Shown here piece by piece: positions 376 to 41,910 of a stretch of DNA of 64,000 nucleotides. A program made the translations under genes and the position numbers. Origin of the DNA: Gammaproteobacteria bacterium (lineage in GTDB: Bacteria > Pseudomonadota > Gammaproteobacteria > Ga0077536); the NCBI GenBank assembly GCA_030830685.1, contig JAURMM010000021.1, forward strand, positions 2,462 to 66,461, written 5' to 3'. The notes under the pieces were generated by a model, which saw only the letters and a list, made by a program, of their open reading frames with translations, was not told the origin of the DNA and ran no database searches. Within the stretch, counting starts at the first letter, position 1. Each line of letters begins with the position of its first letter.

Positions 376-2646
376 GTGCTAAGCAAAGAACTGGAAGTAA
401 CGCTGAACCTGGCGTTCAAGGCTGCACGGGAGCAGCGGCATGAGTTCATGACGATCGAACACCTGCTGCTCGCACTCATCGACAATCCCACCGCCGCCAA
501 GGTGCTGAGGGCTTGCGGTGCTGATCTCAACCAGCTGCGGCGGCAGCTCGCGGATTTCATCCGCGAGAACTCCCCTGCCCTGCCGGAGGACGAGGAACGC
601 GACACGCAGCCGACACTGGGCTTTCAGCGCGTCCTGCAGAGAGCCGTATTCCATGTCCAGTCCTCAGGCAAGAAGGAAGTCACCGGCGCCAACGTGCTGG
701 TGGCTATCTTCGGTGAGCGCGAATCGCAGGCCGTGTATCTGCTCGGCCAGCAGAACATTGCCCGGCTCGACGTGGTCAACTGCATTTCCCACGGCATCTC
801 CAAGCTCGGAGAGGAAGAGAACACCGGCGAGAACACCGCCAACGCAGAAGAGGAAGGAGAAGCCGGCGAAGCCAGCAAGACCGCCCTCGATCAGTTCTGC
901 ACCAATCTCAACGAGCAGGCGCGGCGCGGCAAGATCGATCCCCTCATCGGGCGTCAGGATGAAATCGAGCGCACGGTCCAGATTCTCTGTCGCCGGCGCA
1001 AGAACAACCCTCTCTATGTGGGTGAGGCAGGGGTTGGCAAGACTGCCATCGCAGAGGGTCTGGCCAAGAAGATCATCGAGAAGGACGTTCCCGAGATTCT
1101 CCACAACGCGGTCATCTACTCGCTGGACCTCGGCGCGCTGCTTGCCGGTACCAAATACCGGGGGGATTTCGAGAAGCGGCTGAAGGCCGTGATCGCCCAA
1201 CTGAAGCGTGAGCCCGGCGCGGTGCTGTTCATCGACGAGATTCACACCATCATCGGAGCAGGCGCCGCCTCCGGAGGTGTCATGGATGCCTCAAACCTGA
1301 TCAAGCCGATGCTCGCGTCAGGTGAGATGAAGTGCATCGGGTCGACGACCTACCAGGAATATCGCGGCATCTTCGAAAAGGACCGGGCGCTGTCACGCCG
1401 CTTCCAGAAAATTGATGTCAACGAGCCCTCCGTAGAGGAAGCAGTCAAGATTCTCCAGGGGCTCAAGTCCCGTTTCGAAGAGCACCACGACGTCAAGTAC
1501 ACCAACCAGGCGCTCCGCTCGGCGGTGGAACTCACCAGCCGGTATATGAATGACAGGCATCTACCGGACAAGGCTATCGACATCATCGATGAGGCCGGCG
1601 CGCGCCAGCGCCTCGCACCGCCCTCCCGTCGCAAGAAGACCGTAGGCACTTTCGAGATCGAGGAGATCGTGGCCAAGGTTGCACGGATTCCGCCCAAGAC
1701 GGTGTCCACGTCCGACAAGGAAGTGCTGCAGAACCTGGAGCGGGATCTGAAGATGGTCGTATTTGGCCAGGACGAAGCCATCTCCACGTTGGCAACGGCC
1801 ATCAAGCTGTCCCGCTCAGGGCTCGGCAATCCCGAGAAGCCCATTGGTTCCTTCCTCTTTGCCGGGCCCACCGGCGTCGGCAAGACCGAAGTCACGCGAC
1901 AGCTCGCCCGCATCATGGGCATAGAGCTGATCCGATTCGATATGTCGGAATACATGGAACGGCATACCGTGTCGCGCCTCATCGGTGCTCCCCCGGGTTA
2001 TGTCGGGTTCGACAACGGCGGCCTGCTCACCGAGGCCGTGCACAAGCAGCCCCATGCCGTGCTGTTGCTGGATGAAATGGAAAAGGCCCACCCGGACGTC
2101 TTCAACGTCCTGCTTCAGGTGATGGACCACGGCACGCTGACGGATGCGAACGGACGCAAGACGGACTTCCGCAACGTGATCATCGTGATGACCACCAATG
2201 CAGGGGCTGAGCGGCTCAGCCGGGCTTCAATCGGCTTCACCTTGCAGGACCACGCAACCGATGCCGGCGAAGCGATCAAGCGCACGTTCAGCCCTGAGTT
2301 CCGCAACCGTCTGGATGCGGTGATCCAGTTCCGGGCGCTGGATCCGGCGACCATCGGTCATGTAGTCGACAAGTTCCTGGTGGAACTGGAGAGCCAGCTG
2401 GACAGCAAGAAAGTGACTCTGGAAGTGGATCAGGTTGCGCGGCAGTGGCTCGCCGAGCATGGCTACGATCCGCTGATGGGGGCACGCCCGATGAATCGCC
2501 TCATCCAGGAGAAGCTGAAGCGCGCACTGGCGGAGGAGCTGCTGTTCGGGCGTCTGGTGAATGGCGGCCATGTGCTGGTGACCGTGCGCGACGACGACAT
2601 CGCGGTCGAGATAGAAGTCGAAGAAAAAGTCACAGGAGAGGCCTGA
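376..2646 (+). CDS. clpA: ATP-dependent Clp protease ATP-binding subunit ClpA
   Basis: 756-aa ORF with a GTG start. The N-terminus [34 protein letters not shown] is close to E. coli ClpA. It has two Walker A motifs, GEAGVGKT and GPTGVGKT. Confidence 0.95.
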
Positions 2647-4624: not shown

Positions 4625-6304
4625 ATGACAGACAAACTGAACCGTTACAGCGCCCGCATCACCCAACCCCGTTCGCAGGGCGCCTCCCAGGCCATGCTCT
4701 ATGCGACGGGACTCAAGCGCGAAGATCTGGACAAGCCGCAGATCGGCATCGCGAGCATGTGGTTCGAGGGCAACCCCTGCAACATGCACCTGCTGGACCT
4801 CGGCGCCCAGGTCAAACAGGGCGTGGAAGCAGCCGGAATGGTCGGCATGCGCTTCAACACCATCGGTGTCAGTGATGGCATCTCGATGGGTACCGACGGC
4901 ATGAGCTACTCCCTGCAGTCCCGGGAGATCATTGCCGACTCGATCGAAACCACCATGGGCGGTCAATGGTATGACGCACTGGTGGCGATTCCGGGGTGCG
5001 ACAAGAACATGCCGGGATGCATCATCGCGATGGCCCGTCTCAATCGGCCGGCGGTCATGGTCTATGGCGGCACCATCAAGCCGGGGCATTCCCGCGGCGA
5101 GACCTTGGATATCGTGTCCGCCTTTCAGTGCTATGGCGCTTACATCGCCGGCACCATCGATGACACCCGCCGCGAGGAAATCGTGCGCAACGCCTGCCCG
5201 GGCGCGGGGGCCTGTGGTGGCATGTACACCGCAAACACCATGGCCTCGGCGATCGAAGCCATGGGCATGAGCCTTCCCTACAGTTCCTCCACACCTGCGG
5301 TCGACCCGCTGAAGCTGGAGGAGTGCCGGCGAGCCGGTGATGCCGTGCGGCATCTGCTGGAACGGGACATCAAGCCGCGCGACATCATGACCCGGGCCGC
5401 CTTCGAGAACGCAATGGTGGTGGTGTCGGCCTTGGGTGGATCCACCAACGCCGTGCTCCATCTGCTCGCCATGGCCCGTGCGGCCGGGGTGGAGCTGTCG
5501 CTCGATGATTTCCAGAAGGTCTCGAATCGCGTGCCGCTGCTGGCCGATCTCAAGCCGAGCGGCAAATACGTGATGGAGGATGTGCAACGCATCGGTGGCA
5601 TTCCTGCCGTCATGAAGTATCTGATGGAGCAGGGCCTCATCGATGGCAGCTGTCTCACTTGCACGGGTCGGACCCTCGCCGAGAATCTTGCCGACCTTCC
5701 CGGCCTCGCCGAAGGCCAGCAAGTGATCCGCCCGCTATCCAATCCCATCAAGGCGACAGGCCATATCCAGATTTTGCGTGGCAACCTCGCCCCCGGTGGC
5801 TCCGTCGCCAAAATCACCGGCAAGGAAGGCCTCACCTTCACCGGTCCGGCCAAGGTCTATGATTCGGAAGAGGACATGCTGAAGGCATTGGAGCAGAAGG
5901 AGATCGGCAAGGGCGACGTGGTGGTCATCCGCTATGAAGGACCGCAGGGCGGGCCAGGCATGCCGGAGATGCTCACGCCCACCTCGGCCCTGATGGGCGC
6001 GGGCTTGGGTGACTCCGTCGCGCTCATCACAGACGGACGCTTCTCGGGCGGCTCGCATGGCTTCATCGTGGGCCATGTGGTGCCCGAGGCGCAGCTGGGC
6101 GGGCCCATTGCGCTCATTCGTAGCGGTGATGTCGTCACCATCGATGCGGCGCAGGGGCGCCTCGATGTCGCAGTTCCCGAGGCTGAAATGGCTGCGCGCC
6201 ACGCAGCGTGGACCATGCCGCCCTACAAGGTCACCCGCGGCACCCTCTACAAGTTCATCAAGACGGTGAAGTCGGCGTCCGAGGGTTGCGTAACCGACGA
6301 GTAG
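4625..6304 (+). CDS. ilvD: Dihydroxy-acid dehydratase
   Basis: The sequence [29 protein letters not shown] ... PGCDKNMPG ... TDGRFSGG is a clear IlvD/Edd family signature. The start is set to the ATG at 4625. Confidence 0.95.
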
Positions 6305-6319
6305 GATCGAGCCTTGGTC

Positions 6320-6352
6320 GCGGCCCCGGCTCTCCAACCGCGCCGGGGTCGC
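6320..6352. terminator. GC-rich hairpin between convergent ilvD and the transglycosylase gene
   Basis: GCGGCCCCGG-N13-CCGGGGTCGC forms a 10-bp stem with one G-U pair. There is no U-run, so terminator function is only a candidate. Confidence 0.3.
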
Positions 6353-6359
6353 CTGACGC

Positions 6360-6992
6360 TCAGAGCGACATCTTCTTGTAGTCGTCGTAGAACTTCAGCA
6401 CGCGTTTGACGTAGGTCTGGGTCTCTTCGTAGGGCGGAATCCTGCGCCCGTGTTTCAGCACCGCACCCTCGCCCGCGTTGTAGGCCGCAATGGCCAGCAC
6501 AAGGTCGTTGTTGAACATGCCGAGCAAATCCTTGAGGTACTCAGTCCCCCCGGCAATGTTCGCAACCGGATCACGCCGGTTGTGCACGCCATAACGCTCG
6601 GCGGTCGCCGGCATCAGCTGCATCAGACCAACCGCGCCGGCAGTCGAGACGGCGTTCGGGTCATAGGCCGATTCGGCCGTGATCACCGCATGCACCAGCG
6701 CTGTCGGCAGGGCGCGCTCGAGCGCTGCCTCGGCAATGGTGCGGCTGAAGCGTTGGCGGTTGGCAGCGAGCAGCCGGTAATTCACGGACGCAGCGCCCCG
6801 TGATTGCGACCACCCTTTCCAGGTGCGCACCAGGCGCTTGTAGCCCGCGTGCTCCGGGCGGTCGGTGAGGTAGACCCGCCCGTACTTGTCGACGTACTTG
6901 TAGATGTCAGCCCGCGCGGACGGCAGCTCCCAGCACCACAGCGACGTGAGCAGGATGCAAGAGACGACAATCTGCTGCGGCTTGATGGTCAT
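6360..6992 (-). CDS. Lytic transglycosylase (SLT domain) with DUF4124-like N-terminus
   Basis: It carries the SLT catalytic region ITAESAYDPNAVSTAGAVGLMQLMPATAERYG ... AAYNAGEGAV. The N-terminus has a signal peptide and DIYKYVDKYGRVYLTD. Its start overlaps the pgpA stop (ATGA). Confidence 0.85.
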   Translation of the reverse strand: MTIKPQQIVVSCILLTSLWCWELPSARADIYKYVDKYGRVYLTDRPEHAGYKRLVRTWKGWSQSRGAASVNYRLLAANRQRFSRTIAEAALERALPTALVHAVITAESAYDPNAVSTAGAVGLMQLMPATAERYGVHNRRDPVANIAGGTEYLKDLLGMFNNDLVLAIAAYNAGEGAVLKHGRRIPPYEETQTYVKRVLKFYDDYKKMSL

Positions 6993-7528
6993 GGGCTGCC
7001 GAGAAATCTTCCTGGATTCAGCTGCATCAGCACCAACCCGGCCACCGCACCGGCAGCCAGATCATCGGCCATCACACCCCACCCTCCGCCGAGACGGCGT
7101 TCGAGCAGGCCTATGGGCCATGGCTTCGTGATGTCGAGGATACGGAACAGCACAAAAGCGGCCAACAGGGTTAGCGGCGTCACCCCGCCAGAACCTGACC
7201 CAGGGGGAAGTCCGATCCCGGCCGCCAGCCCGATCGCCACCATCACCCCTACGACTTCATCCCAGACGATGGCGCCGTGGTCCACCTGCCCAAGGATGAT
7301 CCCGGTGCGTCTGCAGAGTGGAACGCCCGTGGCACCCATGAGCATCAACAGCCCCCAGAACCACGCAGCCGGCAATCCCTGCAGGCACCAGGCCATCAAC
7401 ACACCCACCGCGCTGCCCCAGGTACCGGGGGCAAACGGCATGAGCCCCGCGCCCCCGCCGAGGCTCAGGAAATGCCCCGGGTCCCTGAGCAGTCTGGCAG
7501 AGGGCACGCGAGCCCGGTGCGTGCTCAC
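6989..7528 (-). CDS. pgpA: Phosphatidylglycerophosphatase A
   Basis: The motifs GTWGSAVGVL ... ILDITKPWPIG ... GWGVMADDLAAG are typical of PgpA. It shows a 4-nt overlap with both neighbouring genes. Confidence 0.85.
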   Translation of the reverse strand: MSTHRARVPSARLLRDPGHFLSLGGGAGLMPFAPGTWGSAVGVLMAWCLQGLPAAWFWGLLMLMGATGVPLCRRTGIILGQVDHGAIVWDEVVGVMVAIGLAAGIGLPPGSGSGGVTPLTLLAAFVLFRILDITKPWPIGLLERRLGGGWGVMADDLAAGAVAGLVLMQLNPGRFLGSP

Positions 7529-36399: not shown

Positions 36400-36570
36400 A
36401 TGGCTATGGCTAATGACCTTGACGATCCGAACAGGGTTTGGCCCACCGGCTTGACAATTGGCGAGTCGGAGGAGCTGCACAAGCACGTCATTGATGGAGC
36501 GCGCGTGTTTTTTGCGATCTCCGTGGTGGCGCATATCCTGGCGTACGTCTACACCCCGTGGTTTGGTTAG
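36400..36570 (+). CDS. pucB: Light-harvesting complex 2 (peripheral antenna) beta polypeptide
   Basis: [35 protein letters not shown] aligns with LH2 beta chains (for example Rps. acidophila [35 protein letters not shown]), including both His residues and the Arg after DG. ATG 36400 lies 5 nt after GAGGAGGA; a second in-frame ATG is at 36406. Confidence 0.9.
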
Positions 36571-36582
36571 GAGGGCACACAG

Positions 36583-36729
36583 ATGAACCAAGGAAGAATC
36601 TGGTGCGTGGTGAAACCGACAGTCGGTCTGCCGCTTTTTCTGGGCACCGTGCTGGTGATTTCGCTGCTTGTGCACCTTGCAGTGCTGACCAATACCACCT
36701 GGTTCTCGGCCTTCCTTCAGGGGGGTTGA
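36583..36729 (+). CDS. pucA: Light-harvesting complex 2 (peripheral antenna) alpha polypeptide
   Basis: This gene is absent from the ORF track because it has only 49 codons. ATG 36583 lies 7 nt after GGAGGG. The translation [48 protein letters not shown] aligns without gaps to Rps. acidophila LH2 alpha ([48 protein letters not shown]...). The BChl-ligand His31 is conserved. Confidence 0.9.
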
Positions 36730-36763
36730 GTGCCGGACCCGTTGGCGCAAGCTGGCGGTTCCC

Positions 36764-36808
36764 GGACAGTACCGGCCCTGAGGAATCAGGTGCCGGTGCC
36801 GTCTGTCC
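36764..36808 (+). promoter_or_regulatory. Intercistronic pucA-pucC stem-loop
   Basis: GGACAG-T-ACCGGC-CCTGA-GGAA-TCAGG-T-GCCGGT-GCCGT-CTGTCC forms 17 bp in three stacked helices capped by a GGAA tetraloop. No U-run follows. Confidence 0.55.
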
Positions 36809-36826
36809 ATCAAAAGTCTTTCTGAC

Positions 36827-38257
36827 ATGAGCAAGACTGACGCCAGCCGATTCCGGCTGTGGCTCGCGAACAGTCCCCGCTTTCTTCCCTTTGCCGATGT
36901 CGCAACACCGGACCTTCCGCTGCCGCGCCTGCTCCGGCTGTCGCTCTTCCAGATTTCGGTCGGCATGTCGCTGGTGCTGCTCGTCGGCACCTTGAATCGC
37001 GTGATGATCGTTGAACTGGGAGTGCCGGCGAGCCTGGTCGGTCTGATGATCTCGATGCCCGTCCTGTTCGCGCCGCTGCGAGCTTTGATCGGTTTTCGAT
37101 CTGACCACCACCGATGTGCGCTCGGCTGGCGCCGGGTGCCCTATCTTTGGCAGGGCAGCCTGCTGCAATTCGGGGGATTCGCAATCATGCCTTTTGCCCT
37201 GCTCGTGCTGGGCGGGGCGGGCCATGCCGCTGAGGCGCCGGTCTGGATTGGTCGATTGTCTGCCGCTCTTGCTTTCATGCTGGTTGGGGCGGGCATCCAT
37301 GTGGTGCAAACCGTCGGCCTGGCACTCGCGACAGACCTCACGGTGCACGAATCCCATCCGCGAGTTGTCGGTTTGATGTATGTGATGTTGCTGCTGGGAA
37401 TGCTCGGCAGTGCGCTCTTGTTCGGACATGCTCTGGAGGATTTCTCACCGGGCCGGCTGGTGCAGGTGATTCAAACAGCCGCAGTGACCGGGCTCGCGCT
37501 CAATGCCATTGCGTTGTGGAAGCAGGAGCCTCGCCAATCGCGGCGACCGACCTCATCACCAGCCCCTGCCCCGTCGTTCAGGAGCACGTGGCTGCAGTTG
37601 CTTGAAACGGGTAACACGTTCAGGGCTTTGTTCATCGTGGGCGTTGGCACGCTCGCCTTCAGCATGGCGGACATTCTTCTGGAACCTTTCGGCGGGCAGA
37701 TTCTGGGGATGGCAGTCTCTGCGACCACGCGCCTGACCGCACTGCTGGCAGGTGGCGGCCTGGTCGGTTTTGCTTTTGCTTCACATGTGCTGAGCAAGGG
37801 TGGTTCACCCCTCAAAATGGCACTGGCAGGCGCCCTGTTGGGCATCCCGGCCTTCATGGCGGTGATTGTCGCGGCGAGTCTCCAGTCCCCGATGATCTTC
37901 CTGCTCGGCAATCTGTTCATAGGCTTCAGCGGCGCGCTATTCGGCCACGGCACGCTGACGGCGACCATGCAGAGTGCGCCTGAGGAACATAACGGGCTCG
38001 CGCTCGGGGCCTGGGGCGCCGTACAGGCCACGGCCGCCGGCGTAGGCGTTGCCAGCAGCGGCATCCTGCGGGACATGGTCAACCTCGTGGCACCAGAGGT
38101 GCAGCTTGTGCCAACCTCGGGTGCCAACGGATATCTTGCCGTATACCTCATCGAGGCTTCGCTGCTGGTCTTGACGGTGGCGGTGTTGCTCCCGCTCGTT
38201 TACCGAAGCAACGAATTGCACACTGGCCGCCGTGCTCACCTGCACCATTCGCCATGA
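36827..38257 (+). CDS. pucC: PucC / BCD-family MFS protein (LH2 assembly factor)
   Basis: The sequence FLPFADVATPDLPLPRLLRLSLFQISVGMSLVLLVGTLNRVMIVELGVPASLVGLMISMPVLFAPLRALIGFRSDHH is the hallmark N-terminal region of PucC/LhaA. It is a 476-aa polytopic membrane protein. Confidence 0.9.
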   Translation: MSKTDASRFRLWLANSPRFLPFADVATPDLPLPRLLRLSLFQISVGMSLVLLVGTLNRVMIVELGVPASLVGLMISMPVLFAPLRALIGFRSDHHRCALGWRRVPYLWQGSLLQFGGFAIMPFALLVLGGAGHAAEAPVWIGRLSAALAFMLVGAGIHVVQTVGLALATDLTVHESHPRVVGLMYVMLLLGMLGSALLFGHALEDFSPGRLVQVIQTAAVTGLALNAIALWKQEPRQSRRPTSSPAPAPSFRSTWLQLLETGNTFRALFIVGVGTLAFSMADILLEPFGGQILGMAVSATTRLTALLAGGGLVGFAFASHVLSKGGSPLKMALAGALLGIPAFMAVIVAASLQSPMIFLLGNLFIGFSGALFGHGTLTATMQSAPEEHNGLALGAWGAVQATAAGVGVASSGILRDMVNLVAPEVQLVPTSGANGYLAVYLIEASLLVLTVAVLLPLVYRSNELHTGRRAHLHHSP

Positions 38258-38766
38258 GTCGCCTCGCGATTCTTGAATACCCGGATATCCGCCTGCGCGA
38301 CCAGGCCGTTCCTGTCACCGATTTCGGGGGCGCGCTGCACGAGCTGGTGGACGATATGTTCGAGACCCTGCGCGCGAGCCGCGCCATCGGGCTGGCCGCC
38401 CCGCAAGTAGGCTACAACCAACGCATCGTGGTGGTGGATGCGTCAGGAACCGGGAACGCTCCCACGCTGTTCATCAACCCCCGCATCACGGCGCGGCATT
38501 TATGGGCCGTGATCGAAGAGAGCTGCCTCTCTGTACCGGGGCTTGAGGGACGCGTCAAACGATGCCTGCGTGTGACGGTCGAGGCACAGGACAGACACGG
38601 CAGGCCTTTCACGCGTCATCTCGAAGACATGGAGGCTGTGGTCGTCCAGCACGAGCTGGATCATCTGGAAGGCGTGTTGTTTGTCGACCGGTTACCGCTG
38701 TTGCGACAGCTTGTCTGGCGCTGGAAAAACCGGCACGTGGCGGAGCCAGGACGCGTCAGCGCCTGA
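38254..38766 (+). CDS. def: Peptide deformylase
   Basis: All three motifs are present: GLAAPQVG, EESCLSVPG (an EGCLS variant), and QHELDHLEG. The ATG overlaps the pucC stop (ATGA at 38254-38257). No fmt gene is adjacent. Confidence 0.9.
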   Translation: MSRLAILEYPDIRLRDQAVPVTDFGGALHELVDDMFETLRASRAIGLAAPQVGYNQRIVVVDASGTGNAPTLFINPRITARHLWAVIEESCLSVPGLEGRVKRCLRVTVEAQDRHGRPFTRHLEDMEAVVVQHELDHLEGVLFVDRLPLLRQLVWRWKNRHVAEPGRVSA

Positions 38767-39782: not shown

Positions 39783-39796
39783 GACTGTCGAGCGGT

Positions 39797-40006
39797 TCAG
39801 TTGAATCTTTCTTTGTTGATGACAGAGGCAATGTATATTCCCAGCGGCCGGGCGACCTCACGTTTGGTGCTGGGACACGCAACCGTCTCTGCGATAAGAG
39901 CGCGCTCGAAGCGCTGCACCCGCGCGCGCAGCGCTACGTTGAGGTTCGGGCGAGGGCGGTAGCGTCTAATTTTAAATCTGCCACAGCCACGGATCTCACC
40001 AGCCAT
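39797..40006 (-). pseudogene. Possible remnant of a Fis-type HTH regulator C-terminus
   Basis: The 69-aa ORF ends with FERALIAETVACPSTKREVARPLGIYIASVINK. This loosely resembles the C-terminal Fis-type HTH of NtrC-family activators. No upstream domains are present, and it sits at the edge of the lower-GC islet. Confidence 0.3.
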
Positions 40007-40060
40007 CCCACTGGGTTACTGGGACCGGTCAGCCGGATAGCCACCACGCTACCGAGTGGT

Positions 40061-40459
40061 GTGTGGCAGTGTCAGTTAGCCGGCAGTCTGGGCTATGGCG
40101 GCTGTGACTTGCTGGATTATGTAGGCAATGCACGCTTGGTCCTTGATGGAACTAAGGACCAATATAGCTTTGGTCATCTTGTCCACAAAAGTAGTGTCTA
40201 TTACACGCTCAGAGTGCAAGGATCGTCTTCCTCTTGTCAGGCAATCATTGATCCGACGGGGAGCAAGTACACCATGAACAGGTCCCAACGGGGTATGTTG
40301 CGGTTAACTTATACGTGCGGCACTGAACCGGCATATTCCGTGCAATGGAGCTTTCTGCTTGATAACGCGAGCAACAGCGCCTACCTCACAGTGGACGGCA
40401 CGACCCAGAACGGCGGACGGCCTGGGCACCTTGGTGAGGGGCAATGTCGCCGACTCTGA
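40061..40459 (+). CDS. Hypothetical protein (lower-GC, Cys-containing, no recognised family)
   Basis: 132-aa ORF in a stretch that is visibly AT-richer than the rest of the window. I recognise no motif, and its coding status is uncertain. Confidence 0.3.
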   Translation: MWQCQLAGSLGYGGCDLLDYVGNARLVLDGTKDQYSFGHLVHKSSVYYTLRVQGSSSSCQAIIDPTGSKYTMNRSQRGMLRLTYTCGTEPAYSVQWSFLLDNASNSAYLTVDGTTQNGGRPGHLGEGQCRRL

Positions 40460-40666
40460 GTTGGCAGAAGATCAGCATCCAGTCTGTATAACGTGGTAAC
40501 TGGCTCATTGCGCTCGCGAAGGCTGAGCCGCGTTAACTGCTGCAAGTATTTCCCAGCCTTGCGTTCCAAAGAGCTCGGCTGGACGGCCTTTGGTGTGTCT
40601 TGATGCCAAGCCAGCAACAGATCAATCGACTGCTCGCCAACCGCCACAAACACCCCATGGCCGATA

Positions 40667-40688
40667 CTCCCCGGAAAAGCCCGGGGAG
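40667..40688 (-). terminator. Hairpin downstream of the PAS gene
   Basis: On the minus strand, CTCCCCGG-GCTTTT-CCGGGGAG forms a perfect 8-bp stem about 58 nt after the PAS gene stop. There is no clear U-run. Confidence 0.35.
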
Positions 40689-40745
40689 GCGCGCCGATGA
40701 GGTGAATGTTGTGGTGGGAGAACTAGGCCGCAGGAGTGTCGGGAT

Positions 40746-41144
40746 TCAGAGGCCGGACACCTCTCGCTGGATAGCAATCCACCCACTGATCTTCGAGCCG
40801 TTTTTCACCGGCAGCACGCGCCAGTGCATGATGAAGGGTGTCTTGTCCTTCTTGTAGTTGATGGCGCGGCCTTCGAAAGTCTTGCCCGTTTCCAGAGCCT
40901 GCCTCAGCCGGTTGATCACGCTCTGGTCCGTCGCTGGTCCCTGCAGGATACGGGGCGTTTTTCCGATGGCCTCTTCCTTCGTGTATCCCGTCAGCTTCTT
41001 GAACGCATTGTTGGCGTACATGATCTTGCCAGCAGGCGTGGCATCGGTAATCAGGATGGAGTCGAAGCTGTTGTCGGCCAGCACTTTCAGCAGCGTCAGC
41101 GTGGCCTTGCCATCAGACAGCACCTTGTCGATTGATATGCCCAT
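40746..41144 (-). CDS. Stand-alone LOV-like PAS domain protein lacking the adduct-forming cysteine
   Basis: The 132-aa sequence ILITDATPAGKIMYANNAFKKLTGYTKEEAIGKTPRILQGPATDQSVINRLRQALETGKTFEGRAINYKKDKTPFIMHWRVLPVKNGSKISGWIAIQREVS aligns along its whole length with LOV domains (YtvA GKNCRFLQGKHTD ... NYKKDGTMFW ... GIQNDIT; phototropin GRNCRFLQGPETD). GAGGAA lies 3 nt before the ATG. Confidence 0.75.
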   Translation of the reverse strand: MGISIDKVLSDGKATLTLLKVLADNSFDSILITDATPAGKIMYANNAFKKLTGYTKEEAIGKTPRILQGPATDQSVINRLRQALETGKTFEGRAINYKKDKTPFIMHWRVLPVKNGSKISGWIAIQREVSGL

Positions 41145-41260
41145 GAGACTTTCCTCGGTTATGAATTTGAATACCGAGCCACAGCGTAGTGGTTTGAGGA
41201 CGGAATCACCATTCTGGCGTCCGGGAGGAGTGCTGGGGAAGCACGCAGAGACGATGGAGC

Positions 41261-41336
<76 letters not shown>

Positions 41337-41363
41337 TGAATCCAGGGAATCATCGAAGATGAA

Positions 41364-41440
41364 TGGGGCGAGCGATGGGGATCGAACCCACGACACCAGG
41401 TACCACAAACCTGTGCTCTACCAACTGAGCTACGCCCGCC
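41364..41440 (-). tRNA. tRNA-His (GUG)
   Basis: The reverse complement is GGCGGGCGTAGCTCAGTTGGTAGAGCACAGGTTTGTGGTACCTGGTGTCGTGGGTTCGATCCCCATCGCTCGCCCCA, with anticodon GTG. The extra 5' G(-1) opposite C73 is typical of tRNA-His. Confidence 0.9.
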
Positions 41441-41528
41441 ATTGAATCTTCATTCAGTCTGCGGAAATGTCCGGGCCGGGATTCAAAGCCCGCCCGACTC
41501 CGGGGCCTTGGCCCTCCAGGCGAAGCGG

Positions 41529-41605
41529 TGGCGCGCCTGGCAGGATTCGAACCTGCTACCCTCGGCTTAGAAGGCCGATGCTCTATCCGAATGAGCTACA
41601 GGCGC
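41529..41605 (-). tRNA. tRNA-Arg (UCU)
   Basis: The reverse complement is GCGCCTGTAGCTCATTCGGATAGAGCATCGGCCTTCTAAGCCGAGGGTAGCAGGTTCGAATCCTGCCAGGCGCGCCA, with anticodon TCT. Confidence 0.9.
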
Positions 41606-41660
41606 ATTTCAAACCCGGGCCAACCCTTGGTCAACCAATCGTCGTTGCGGTGGGAAATTT

Positions 41661-41737
<77 letters not shown>

Positions 41738-41910
41738 TGCCGACCTTTCAGGGCACCTGCCCGACGAAAGGACGGGCATAATACGCAGCGGGTGTCACAG
41801 GGTCAATTGCACCAGCGCCTCCAGAGGCTTCGCCGCCGCGCTCCTCAGCTTGCACGTTCACACGCCATCCCTCACGATCAACGGCCATCCCAGTCACGAG
41901 CATCCTGCCC

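Follow-up and report, generated by a model that had tools for sequence, protein, structure and literature searches.

The stretch of DNA analysed here, referred to as the window, comprises 64,000 nt of contig JAURMM010000021.1 (positions 2,462 to 66,461 of the forward strand) in assembly GCA_030830685.1 of a Gammaproteobacteria bacterium. On its minus strand is a gene for a 132-aa PAS protein that closely resembles LOV domains and has a proline at the position of the photoactive cysteine. The protein is described here as a small, stand-alone representative of a PAS subfamily, termed xPRxLQG, that appears to be a sister group of LOV. The gene and the elements next to it are given below; related loci are designated by L numbers and related proteins by P numbers.

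40746..41144, minus strand: gene for the LOV-like PAS protein of the xPRxLQG subfamily, an open reading frame (ORF) of 132 aa with an ATG start
41149..41156, minus strand: ribosome-binding site GAGGAAAG, five bases before the ATG and kept in L004 and L005
41183..41208, minus strand: candidate extracytoplasmic function (ECF, sigmaE/ChrR-type) promoter, TGATTC (41208..41203), N16, CGCT (41186..41183), 64 nt before the ATG
40630..40745, minus strand: strongly structured 3′ region, minimum free energy -56 kcal/mol, z = -4.28

A Pfam scan of the 132-aa protein detects PAS models alone (PAS_9 at 4.6e-16, residues 29-130) and no second domain. Among NCBIfam models, those of the YtvA family and of LOV histidine kinases match best, but only partially and at the level of a domain, far under the full-length cut-offs. 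The AlphaFold2 (AF2) model, with a pLDDT of 87.7, displays an N-cap helix at residues 12-24 and a five-strand PAS core. The elements follow in the order N-cap, A-beta, B-beta, C-alpha, D-alpha, E-alpha (from Pro64), F-alpha, G-beta, H-beta and I-beta, and the chain stops 3 residues past I-beta. Thus, by Pfam and AF2, the protein has the N-cap-only architecture of short LOV proteins, in which the N-terminal cap is present and both an effector and a C-terminal J-alpha helix are absent. This is the single PAS core with a short N-cap that the initial annotation, made from the letters and translated ORFs, had described.

In a phmmer search of the PDB, residues 28-130 align with Arabidopsis phot2 LOV1 (2z6d, 3.3e-19) and with dozens of other LOV domains, which bears out the end-to-end LOV alignment first drawn from the translation. 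Segments paired in these alignments are GRNCRFLQGPDTD with GKTPRILQGPATD, LNYKKDGTPFWNLL with INYKKDKTPFIMHW, and GMQVE with AIQRE. The predicted structure likewise resembles LOV domains, which bind flavin mononucleotide (FMN): the top 50 Foldseek matches of the AF2 model in the PDB are all LOV domains, with a root mean square deviation (rmsd) of ~1 A over 104-116 columns and target-normalised TM scores of up to 0.95. The codons of the residues discussed below are as follows.

40950..40955, minus strand: Pro64-Arg65; Pro at the LOV adduct-Cys site, Arg the first flavin-phosphate Arg
40941..40943, minus strand: Gln68, the Q of NCRFLQ, by alignment to 2z6d; invariant in the family
40902..40904, minus strand: Arg81, the second phosphate Arg (YtvA R79, AsLOV2 R467), by alignment to 2z6d
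40857..40859, minus strand: Asn96, the NYKKD Asn, by alignment; invariant in the family
40821..40829, minus strand: Met106-His107-Trp108 of strand H-beta; Met for the second flavin-binding Asn, Trp for a pocket Phe/Leu
40767..40769, minus strand: Gln126, the I-beta Gln, which relays flavin N5 protonation in LOV domains, by alignment; invariant

The GxNCRFLQ motif of LOV is altered, and its adduct Cys is absent. GRNCRFLQGP of LOV is opposite GKTPRILQGP of the window protein, with Pro64 for Cys, Thr63 for Asn and Ile66 for Phe, the sequence thus reading GKTPRILQ. The Pro64 codon at 40953-40955 is ggg on the plus strand and CCC on the gene strand, exactly where the substitution had originally been read. 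Since the adduct Cys is absent, formation of a cysteinyl adduct is chemically impossible. In strand H-beta, FWNLL is opposite FIMHW, and the equivalent of YtvA N104 is Met106 (codon 40827-40829), which had been suspected from the translation. R65, Q68, R81, N96 and Q126 are retained; the Arg and Gln of NCRFLQ, the NYKKD Asn and the I-beta Gln had already been noted as kept. With respect to the polar flavin contacts of YtvA (R63, Q66, R79, N94, N104 and Q123), the protein holds five of the six, the N104 equivalent being the exception.

Canonical LOV domains (phototropin LOV1/2, YtvA, CagFbFP, MrLOV) are the nearest known domains in sequence and structure, with 30-40% identity and an rmsd of ~1 A to the model. 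They have in common with the window protein RxLQGP, NY(K/R)KDG and the I-beta Gln. The two differ in the change of Cys to Pro, the preceding N to T, the following F to I, the H-beta Asn to Met, a pocket Phe/Leu to Trp, and the I-beta Gly to Ala.

The same set of changes is found in a large family. A word-indexed protein search at E <= 1e-5 matched at least 1,960 clusters, and the best 120 of these are nearly all 130-133 aa in length and 63-100% identical to the window protein. In a scan of one genome per species, up to 397 genomes encode a relative; the best 80 are all stand-alone copies with 62-98% identity. Carriers, by record label, are metagenome-assembled genomes (MAGs) of Halieaceae, Zhongshania, Steroidobacteraceae, various Alphaproteobacteria, Acidobacteria and Myxococcales, together with one complete chromosome, that of Halioglobus. 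It should be noted that several MAG labels are implausible, such as “Klebsiella pneumoniae” (two), “Devosia equisanguinis” and “Bauldia litoralis” on lake metagenome bins (L009, L010 and others), and the taxonomic spread of the family is therefore not to be taken at face value from record titles.

Residue conservation was counted over 114 aligned family members. P64, R65, L67, Q68, N96, M106, W108, V110, A124 and Q126 show no variation in 114 of 114, W122 differs in one member, and the N-cap motif N25-S-F-D-S29 is essentially invariant. Thus Cys to Pro and Asn to Met are fixed characters of the family. The stand-alone proteins form a tight clade, with 55-68% identity between representatives of 50% clusters. 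Homologues at 63-100% identity are found in thousands of clusters, and the 132-aa PAS gene is judged from such comparisons to be genuine and under strong purifying selection. An explanation of the protein as a decayed LOV domain, a one-off Cys to Pro mutant or a pseudogene of this genome, would rest on the substitution itself and nothing else. It is refuted by the presence of Pro64 and the other changes in every one of the 114 members and in hundreds of species, and by an ORF length held constant at 130-133 aa, and can be practically dismissed.

Two proteins are tandem fusions of short PAS copies, P0143 (256 aa) and P0003 (205 aa). One copy in P0003 reads GKTAKFLQG, with Ala-Lys where others have Pro-Arg. 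The fusions suggest that the functional unit is dimeric.

To consider the flavin pocket, the FMN-contact residues of AsLOV2, which we take to be those seen in LOV structures, were mapped onto the family. Of 19 positions homologous to the LOV pocket, 13 are invariant among the 114 members, and the mean entropy is 0.22 at pocket positions versus 0.76 in the remaining core (Mann-Whitney p = 2e-4). Conservation in the protein is highest at those positions that correspond to the LOV flavin pocket. The four buried polar flavin contacts of LOV, R65, Q68, N96 and Q126, are present in all members. Position 81 varies, with Ser in 43, Ala in 42 and Arg in 19 members. However, Arg is found at either 79 or 81 in 110 of the 114 in a complementary manner (Fisher p = 1e-8, a value inflated by shared ancestry, because the Arg81 sequences form one clade, that of the window protein itself). 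The complementarity is consistent with a phosphate clamp that is needed.

Proline at the Cys site has a precedent. Yee et al. (2015) found ~70 naturally occurring LOV-like proteins in which Ala, His or Pro takes the place of the Cys (PMC4682037). The BAT-LOV* domain, of the halobacterial bacterio-opsin activator, has Pro and binds FAD (flavin adenine dinucleotide), FMN or riboflavin; it is poorly photoreduced, since a neighbouring Trp quenches the excited state, and its conformation shifts upon chemical reduction (PMC4682037). The same work indicates that Cys-less LOV domains can signal via the neutral semiquinone, a precedent that upholds the initial suggestion of signaling without the cysteine (PMC4682037). 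Thus Pro at the Cys site is compatible with flavin, and the headline feature of the window protein, being already known from BAT-LOV*, is not new. Like the window protein, BAT-LOV* is a PAS domain of LOV type in which Pro occupies the Cys site and aromatics are near the flavin site; it is proposed to sense flavin reduction and not an adduct (PMC4682037). The differences are considerable. BAT-LOV* is one domain of a large archaeal REC-GAF-HTH regulator, whereas the window protein is a 132-aa stand-alone bacterial protein, and cofactor binding is demonstrated for the former whereas for the latter we infer it. LOV* proteins are defined as having the Cys replaced and at least 9 of 10 other conserved LOV residues kept, those listed, in YtvA numbering, being G59, N61, R63, F64, L65, Q66, N94, N104 and Q123 (PMC4682037). 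BAT-LOV* retains at least 9 of the 10; the window protein keeps 6 of the 9 listed (G61, R65, L67, Q68, N96 and Q126), and hence does not pass the LOV* filter.

From the sequence comparisons, non-covalent binding of a flavin (FMN, FAD or riboflavin) by the window protein is given a slightly better than even chance. The main rival explanation is that the protein is a PAS adaptor, either without a cofactor or with a non-flavin ligand, and that its LOV-like residues are an inherited scaffold. The pocket would then be self-filled by Trp, Trp and Met, or hold a ligand such as lumazine, pterin or a fatty acid. Such a protein could be a stress-induced interaction module, for example forming a heterodimer with an xPRxLQG PAS domain of a multi-PAS kinase. 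Several features of the pocket speak for this adaptor or against flavin. Three strictly conserved LOV residues are altered (N to T63, F to I66 and N to M106), no member retains the H-beta Asn or the adduct Cys, and the protein does not pass the LOV* filter (PMC4682037). Bulkier residues (W108, W122, M106, and A124 for Gly) remodel the pocket and could fill the cavity, although Ala94 for Leu partly offsets W108, W122 and A124. Met is found at the site of the Asn that hydrogen-bonds the O4/N3 edge of flavin, and the R467-equivalent position varies, with Ser or Ala in most members. In addition, outside the family the protein is closest to PAS modules found in multi-PAS histidine kinases and in a GGDEF protein, and the xPRxLQG subfamily has no solved structure or documented cofactor. 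A cofactor cannot be read from sequence. On the other side, all 114 members have R65, Q68, N96 and Q126, and a second Arg is preserved by the Arg79/81 swap, a combination that is hard to explain without a polar flavin-type ligand, and BAT-LOV* shows that Pro at the Cys site tolerates flavin. The adaptor is thus regarded as rather unlikely, and a bound flavin is preferred.

The relation of the protein to other PAS proteins was examined with a profile search run exhaustively against 1.84 billion representatives, in which 97,626 proteins reached E <= 1e-3. The 150 best of these are mostly multi-PAS sensors. Their 481 PAS domains were realigned to the family profile and display three recurrent types. 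The first is canonical LOV, with N-C-R...Q, N96, N106 and G124. The second, xPRxLQG, has (T/S/N)-P-(R/K)-x-L-Q-G, N96, a hydrophobic residue at 106, Ala/Ser at 124, Gln at 126 (80%) and mostly Arg at 81. The third, the generic kinase type, displays ...R-I-L-x-S-G plus Trp at position 81. xPRxLQG is an operational subfamily, defined in this analysis.

The window protein fits the xPRxLQG signature, with TPRILQG, N96, M106, A124 and Q126. Its profile scores are 133 bits with xPRxLQG, 124 with the unclassified remainder, 94 with NCR LOV (39 bits below xPRxLQG) and 84 with the Trp81 generic kinase type, scores to be read with the caveat that the training domains had been retrieved with this family's own profile. 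Median identity is 42.5% to multi-domain xPRxLQG modules (maximum 53%) versus 33.7% to canonical LOV. These modules occur in multi-PAS histidine kinases, hybrid kinases and one GGDEF protein. They share with the window protein P64, R/K65, Q68, G69, N96, a hydrophobic 106, Ala/Ser 124 and mostly Gln126, and in identity and profile score they are its closest relatives outside the family. They differ in being parts of large sensors and in mostly retaining R81, whereas an invariant NSFDS N-cap motif, M106 and W108 are peculiar to the stand-alone family. Chains that contain both an xPRxLQG module and an NCRFLQ LOV domain are P0190, P0203, P0209, P0215, P0226, P0232, P0235, P0239, P0246, P0251, P0262 and P0287.

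Against the PDB, the best single-domain matches of the family profile are all LOV, and no solved structure of an xPRxLQG domain is found among the matches. MmoS (3ewk) is the top summed match, by addition of two weaker domain matches, the better one being PAS-B (GQSPSILDSP). To our knowledge, MmoS PAS-B carries no FAD. The FAD-binding redox PAS domains, MmoS PAS-A and NifL PAS1, are likewise Cys-independent PAS domains that sense redox through flavin, but their flavin contacts are unlike the LOV-type R/Q/N/Q set of the window protein.

Thus, as far as sequence can place it, the window protein represents, in minimal and stand-alone form, a PAS subfamily that is a sister of LOV, and it is outside the definitions of both LOV and LOV*. 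Its description as an aberrant LOV is rejected, as it belongs to a very large and separately conserved subfamily. The initial annotation had set LOV against a non-LOV PAS subfamily such as the RILQSG-type kinase modules. The protein is not of the RILQSG type, and in that part the LOV assignment stands; the xPRxLQG score of 133 bits versus 94 for NCR LOV does place it in a group other than LOV proper. Overall, what had been observed in the sequence is confirmed and its interpretation is partly supported. A literature search for the string “PRILQG” found no paper with it, and a preprint on LOV diversity does not mention Cys-less or proline variants.

Upstream regions of family members contain a recurrent motif, TGATC(C/T)-N16-CGTA(T/A), found by inspection. 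TGATCC-N16-CGTA is present in 34 of 79 distinct upstream regions (17 exact, 17 with one mismatch), compared with 41 of 3,000 random 150-nt windows (1.4%) from the same loci, and 25 of the 34 elements start 56-72 nt before the ATG. In further loci the element is ahead of a small upstream gene in an operon with the PAS gene. The motif corresponds to the RpoE_Rsp/ChrR-type ECF promoter, for which the consensus in P. syringae is TGATCCnnnnnnnnnnnnnnnnCGTA (PMC5507510) and that in Shewanella, with mapped starts, is TGATCC/CGTA(A/T)T (PMC4336711). The core sigmaE/ChrR regulon includes amine oxidase, DUF1365 (RSP_1090-like), cfa, a short-chain dehydrogenase (SDR) and photolyase (PMC5507510). Some relatives have such genes close by, namely those at L087-L090 and, for photolyase, ~10 of 83 loci. 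The promoter, carried by about half of the related species, and the regulon neighbours in some of them indicate that the family is most likely induced by photo-oxidative stress, by singlet oxygen or blue light. Membership of the family in the sigmaE/ChrR regulon is well supported by these sequence patterns. The promoter link appears to be new and is the most useful new lead; no paper that places a PAS protein in the ChrR regulon was found in a search that did not cover the key comparative study.

The candidate promoter of the window gene is at the modal distance seen in relatives, and both of its boxes stand out as conserved in the comparison with L004 and L005, from which the remainder of the spacer has diverged; the L005 counterpart reads TGATCC-N16-CGCT. 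For the window copy, regulon membership, on this degenerate promoter, is no more than plausible.

Genes near the family members were surveyed by all-against-all clustering of 859 ORFs from 83 loci. A photolyase/cryptochrome gene is found within 5 kb in the ~10 loci noted above and is directly adjacent on the same strand at L034, L049 and L069; Fpg/Nei glycosylase genes are neighbours in 7 loci, and short-chain dehydrogenases and an NAD(P)H-binding protein are also recurrent. In L048, a sigmaE-type motif at 1999-2024 (plus strand) is located 10 nt before an Fpg/Nei glycosylase-photolyase pair, ~1.4 kb downstream of the PAS gene, which suggests a DNA-repair branch of the sigmaE regulon in that genome.

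In 6 loci of the survey, the gene that directly precedes the PAS gene encodes a 95-107-aa membrane protein, a candidate for a partner protein in the lineages concerned. This predicted membrane protein (MFYSIRRLVVYCWDFVFNHEVSPLRHIPD...) is found on the same strand in L029, L058, L060, L062, L066, L079 and L087-L090. It has no Pfam family, the only match being a sub-threshold one to DUF6232 (E 0.025, L087 copy). A sigmaE-type promoter is ahead of the membrane protein-PAS pair where scanned, i.e., in L058, L066, L079 and L087. At the Haliea loci L019 and L021 a 102-aa secreted protein is in the membrane protein's place.

The gene order in L087-L090 is SOUL, the 107-aa membrane protein, PAS, FAD amine oxidase, DUF1365, cyclopropane-fatty-acid synthase (CMAS) and a major facilitator superfamily (MFS) transporter, with an SDR, a glyoxalase-like gene and GTP cyclohydrolase I upstream. 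L087 1-10399 contains 5 strict TGATCY-N15-18-CGTA sites in 10.4 kb versus 0.1 expected. These precede GTP cyclohydrolase I, a DCC1-like thiol-disulfide oxidoreductase, the 107-aa-PAS pair, and the amine oxidase-DUF1365-CMAS-MFS operon. The SOUL gene, for a haem-binding protein, is alongside this promoter island.

The surroundings of the window gene itself contain the following features.

41261..41737, minus strand: tRNA-Pro/Arg/His/Lys cluster, a neighbour only, 116 nt upstream of the PAS gene
41778-41806, minus strand: sigma70-like promoter TTGACC, 17 nt, TATTAT (10/12 matches), just upstream of tRNA-Pro
40061-40459, possibly from ~39960, plus strand: convergent ORF at the local GC minimum, occupying the “gap” 3′ of the PAS gene
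~36400-38766: two light-harvesting complex (LHC) alpha/beta genes, PucC (36827-38257, plus strand) and def (38254-38766, plus strand), annotated from L001

Other neighbours are genes for a peptidyl-prolyl isomerase, an LpxH-like protein and a peptidase C26. The peptide deformylase gene (def) overlaps the PucC stop codon, and past the antenna region are a 239-aa ORF of no family and a TonB-dependent receptor gene. The convergent ORF is ~50% identical to two tandem signal-peptide proteins of L004 (184 and 186 aa; 5888-6442 and 6519-7079, minus strand), which end ...GHLGEGQCRRL. It has neither an in-frame Met nor a hydrophobic signal-peptide core, and may be truncated or decaying. No Pfam family is found for these secreted-protein ORFs. 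A noncoding RNA in the region 39783-40745 was considered and rejected, as Rfam is empty there and the gap is mostly the convergent ORF.

The gene had been placed in a lower-GC islet. It does have a lower GC content (0.569) than the window mean (0.615), but the islet is overstated, since its GC at third codon positions (0.79) equals that of its neighbours and the local minimum (0.51-0.54) falls in the adjacent convergent ORF. An origin as foreign DNA is rejected on the same grounds. L005, a 95%-identical copy, shares only the stretch 41213-40636 with the window, from just upstream of the promoter-like element to ~110 nt beyond the stop codon, and its surroundings differ. Thus the PAS unit behaves as a self-contained cassette. 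The 3′ region has a core hairpin, CUCCCCGG-GCUUUU-CCGGGGAG, at about 40667-40690, with no U-tract, and the terminator scan did not call a hairpin in 40630-40745. L005 shares the stem-loop after the stop codon down to 40636, the limit of its similarity to the window. The structure may act as a terminator or may stabilise the cassette.

The same-strand tRNA cluster reported upstream does consist of four tRNA genes, and the 41778-41806 element is probably the promoter of this Pro-Arg-His-Lys operon. No terminator is called between tRNA-Lys and the PAS gene, so read-through from the tRNAs is possible. Co-transcription need not be invoked, however, as the PAS gene has its own footprinted promoter-like element. 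Beyond the window, tRNA adjacency is found in the near-identical L004 alone; the tRNA near the L005 gene is a different one, at a distance of 745 nt, and no tRNA adjoins the gene at the other loci. The adjacency is therefore rejected as an indication of function.

The initial annotation also pointed to the antenna operon, whose end does lie 2.0-2.5 kb from the PAS gene, and to a role in puc expression. In the explanation to which this leads, the protein would be a photoreceptor for blue light and would control the neighbouring puc operon by way of flavin photoreduction. Apart from the distance, this idea draws on short LOV proteins that control pigment synthesis in D. shibae and R. sphaeroides (PMC4335406) and on the semiquinone signaling of Cys-less LOV domains (PMC4682037). 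The related loci do not agree with it: PucC is found within 6 kb at 0 of 80, and L005 is located elsewhere with only promoter, gene and ~110 nt in common. In the window, two genes on other strands, peptidase C26 and the convergent secreted-protein ORF, separate the PAS gene from the operon. Moreover, the family is present in many lineages not known as phototrophs, and a Trp beside the flavin made photoreduction of BAT-LOV* inefficient (PMC4682037). Regulation of puc by light through this protein is thus improbable, and a link to the antenna genes is rejected. Proximity to the tRNAs and to the antenna operon, neither being a family feature, is a matter of local accident and has no functional message.

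The reading favoured here, tentatively and at just under even odds, is that the protein is a stand-alone LOV-sister sensor with a non-covalently bound flavin, which senses reduction and binds a partner, and that the family is induced under photo-oxidative stress. The flavin would be held without a cysteinyl adduct, and the signal would be its reduction and N5 protonation, driven by light or by the redox or oxidative state of the cell. Gln126 would relay the signal to the N-cap and the beta-sheet surface, as in Cys-less LOV variants (PMC4682037). Met106, Trp108 and Trp122, which would line the pocket, may serve as internal electron donors or quenchers. Such a lining would bias the protein toward a redox-type or weakly photoreducible sensor and would limit singlet-oxygen production by the flavin. 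Cys-less LOV domains such as miniSOG generate singlet oxygen, and miniSOG is among the PDB matches of the window protein. The output would be binding of a partner protein, probably as a dimer, via the N-cap or the beta-sheet.

Known short LOV proteins offer a model for such an output. The N-cap-only proteins DsLOV (Dinoroseobacter shibae) and fungal VVD dimerise through the cap and signal to partners (PMC4335406). They have the same N-cap and LOV-type core without J-alpha or effector, but with the adduct Cys, a full NCRFLQ and a normal photocycle, where the window protein has TPRILQ. RsLOV, from the purple phototroph Rhodobacter sphaeroides, is likewise a small, effector-less LOV-type protein, and it affects photo-oxidative stress genes, as summarised in PMC4335406. 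Unlike the window protein it has the Cys and C-terminal helices. RsLOV influences the stress response, whereas the 132-aa family seems to be controlled from the sigmaE/ChrR promoter.

In addition to the pocket changes discussed above, several observations weigh against this favoured reading. A canonical NCR LOV domain is found in the same chain as an xPRxLQG module in 12 of 85 proteins, and this co-occurrence suggests that the two are not redundant and have distinct inputs. No conserved partner gene is found, and even the commonest neighbour family is confined to 10 of 83 loci. A recognisable promoter motif is missing from about 40% of related loci. The candidate promoter of the window gene has 3 mismatches to TGATCC-N16-CGTA and is not significant alone; the strict motif has 0 matches in the window, and the relaxed motif has 4 versus 4.85 expected, i.e., no enrichment. 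None of the core regulon genes (phr, cfa, amine oxidase, DUF1365, SDR) is near the window gene.

The broadest interpretation, which is unlikely in its entirety, is that the 132-aa proteins are widespread and unrecognised Cys-less, Trp-lined LOV-type flavoproteins that provide a light/redox input to, or feedback on, the sigmaE/ChrR response of aquatic bacteria. The xPRxLQG subfamily would then be an extant form of the redox flavoprotein, sister or ancestral to LOV photoreceptors, whose existence was postulated by Yee et al. (PMC4682037).

For LOV photobiology, the family represents a very large and tightly conserved sister group of LOV in which most flavin contacts are kept and the Cys is always absent, and the window copy itself is a typical member. 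The minimal 132-aa form would be easily expressed. If it binds flavin, the family would be a natural test of the origin of LOV from redox-sensing flavoproteins and would also supply a new scaffold that has Trp and Met electron donors of its own. The sigmaE/ChrR regulon gains a candidate sensor-type protein with a defined promoter motif and cultured carriers, among them Halioglobus sp. Uisw_031 (L022), Zhongshania and Haliea.

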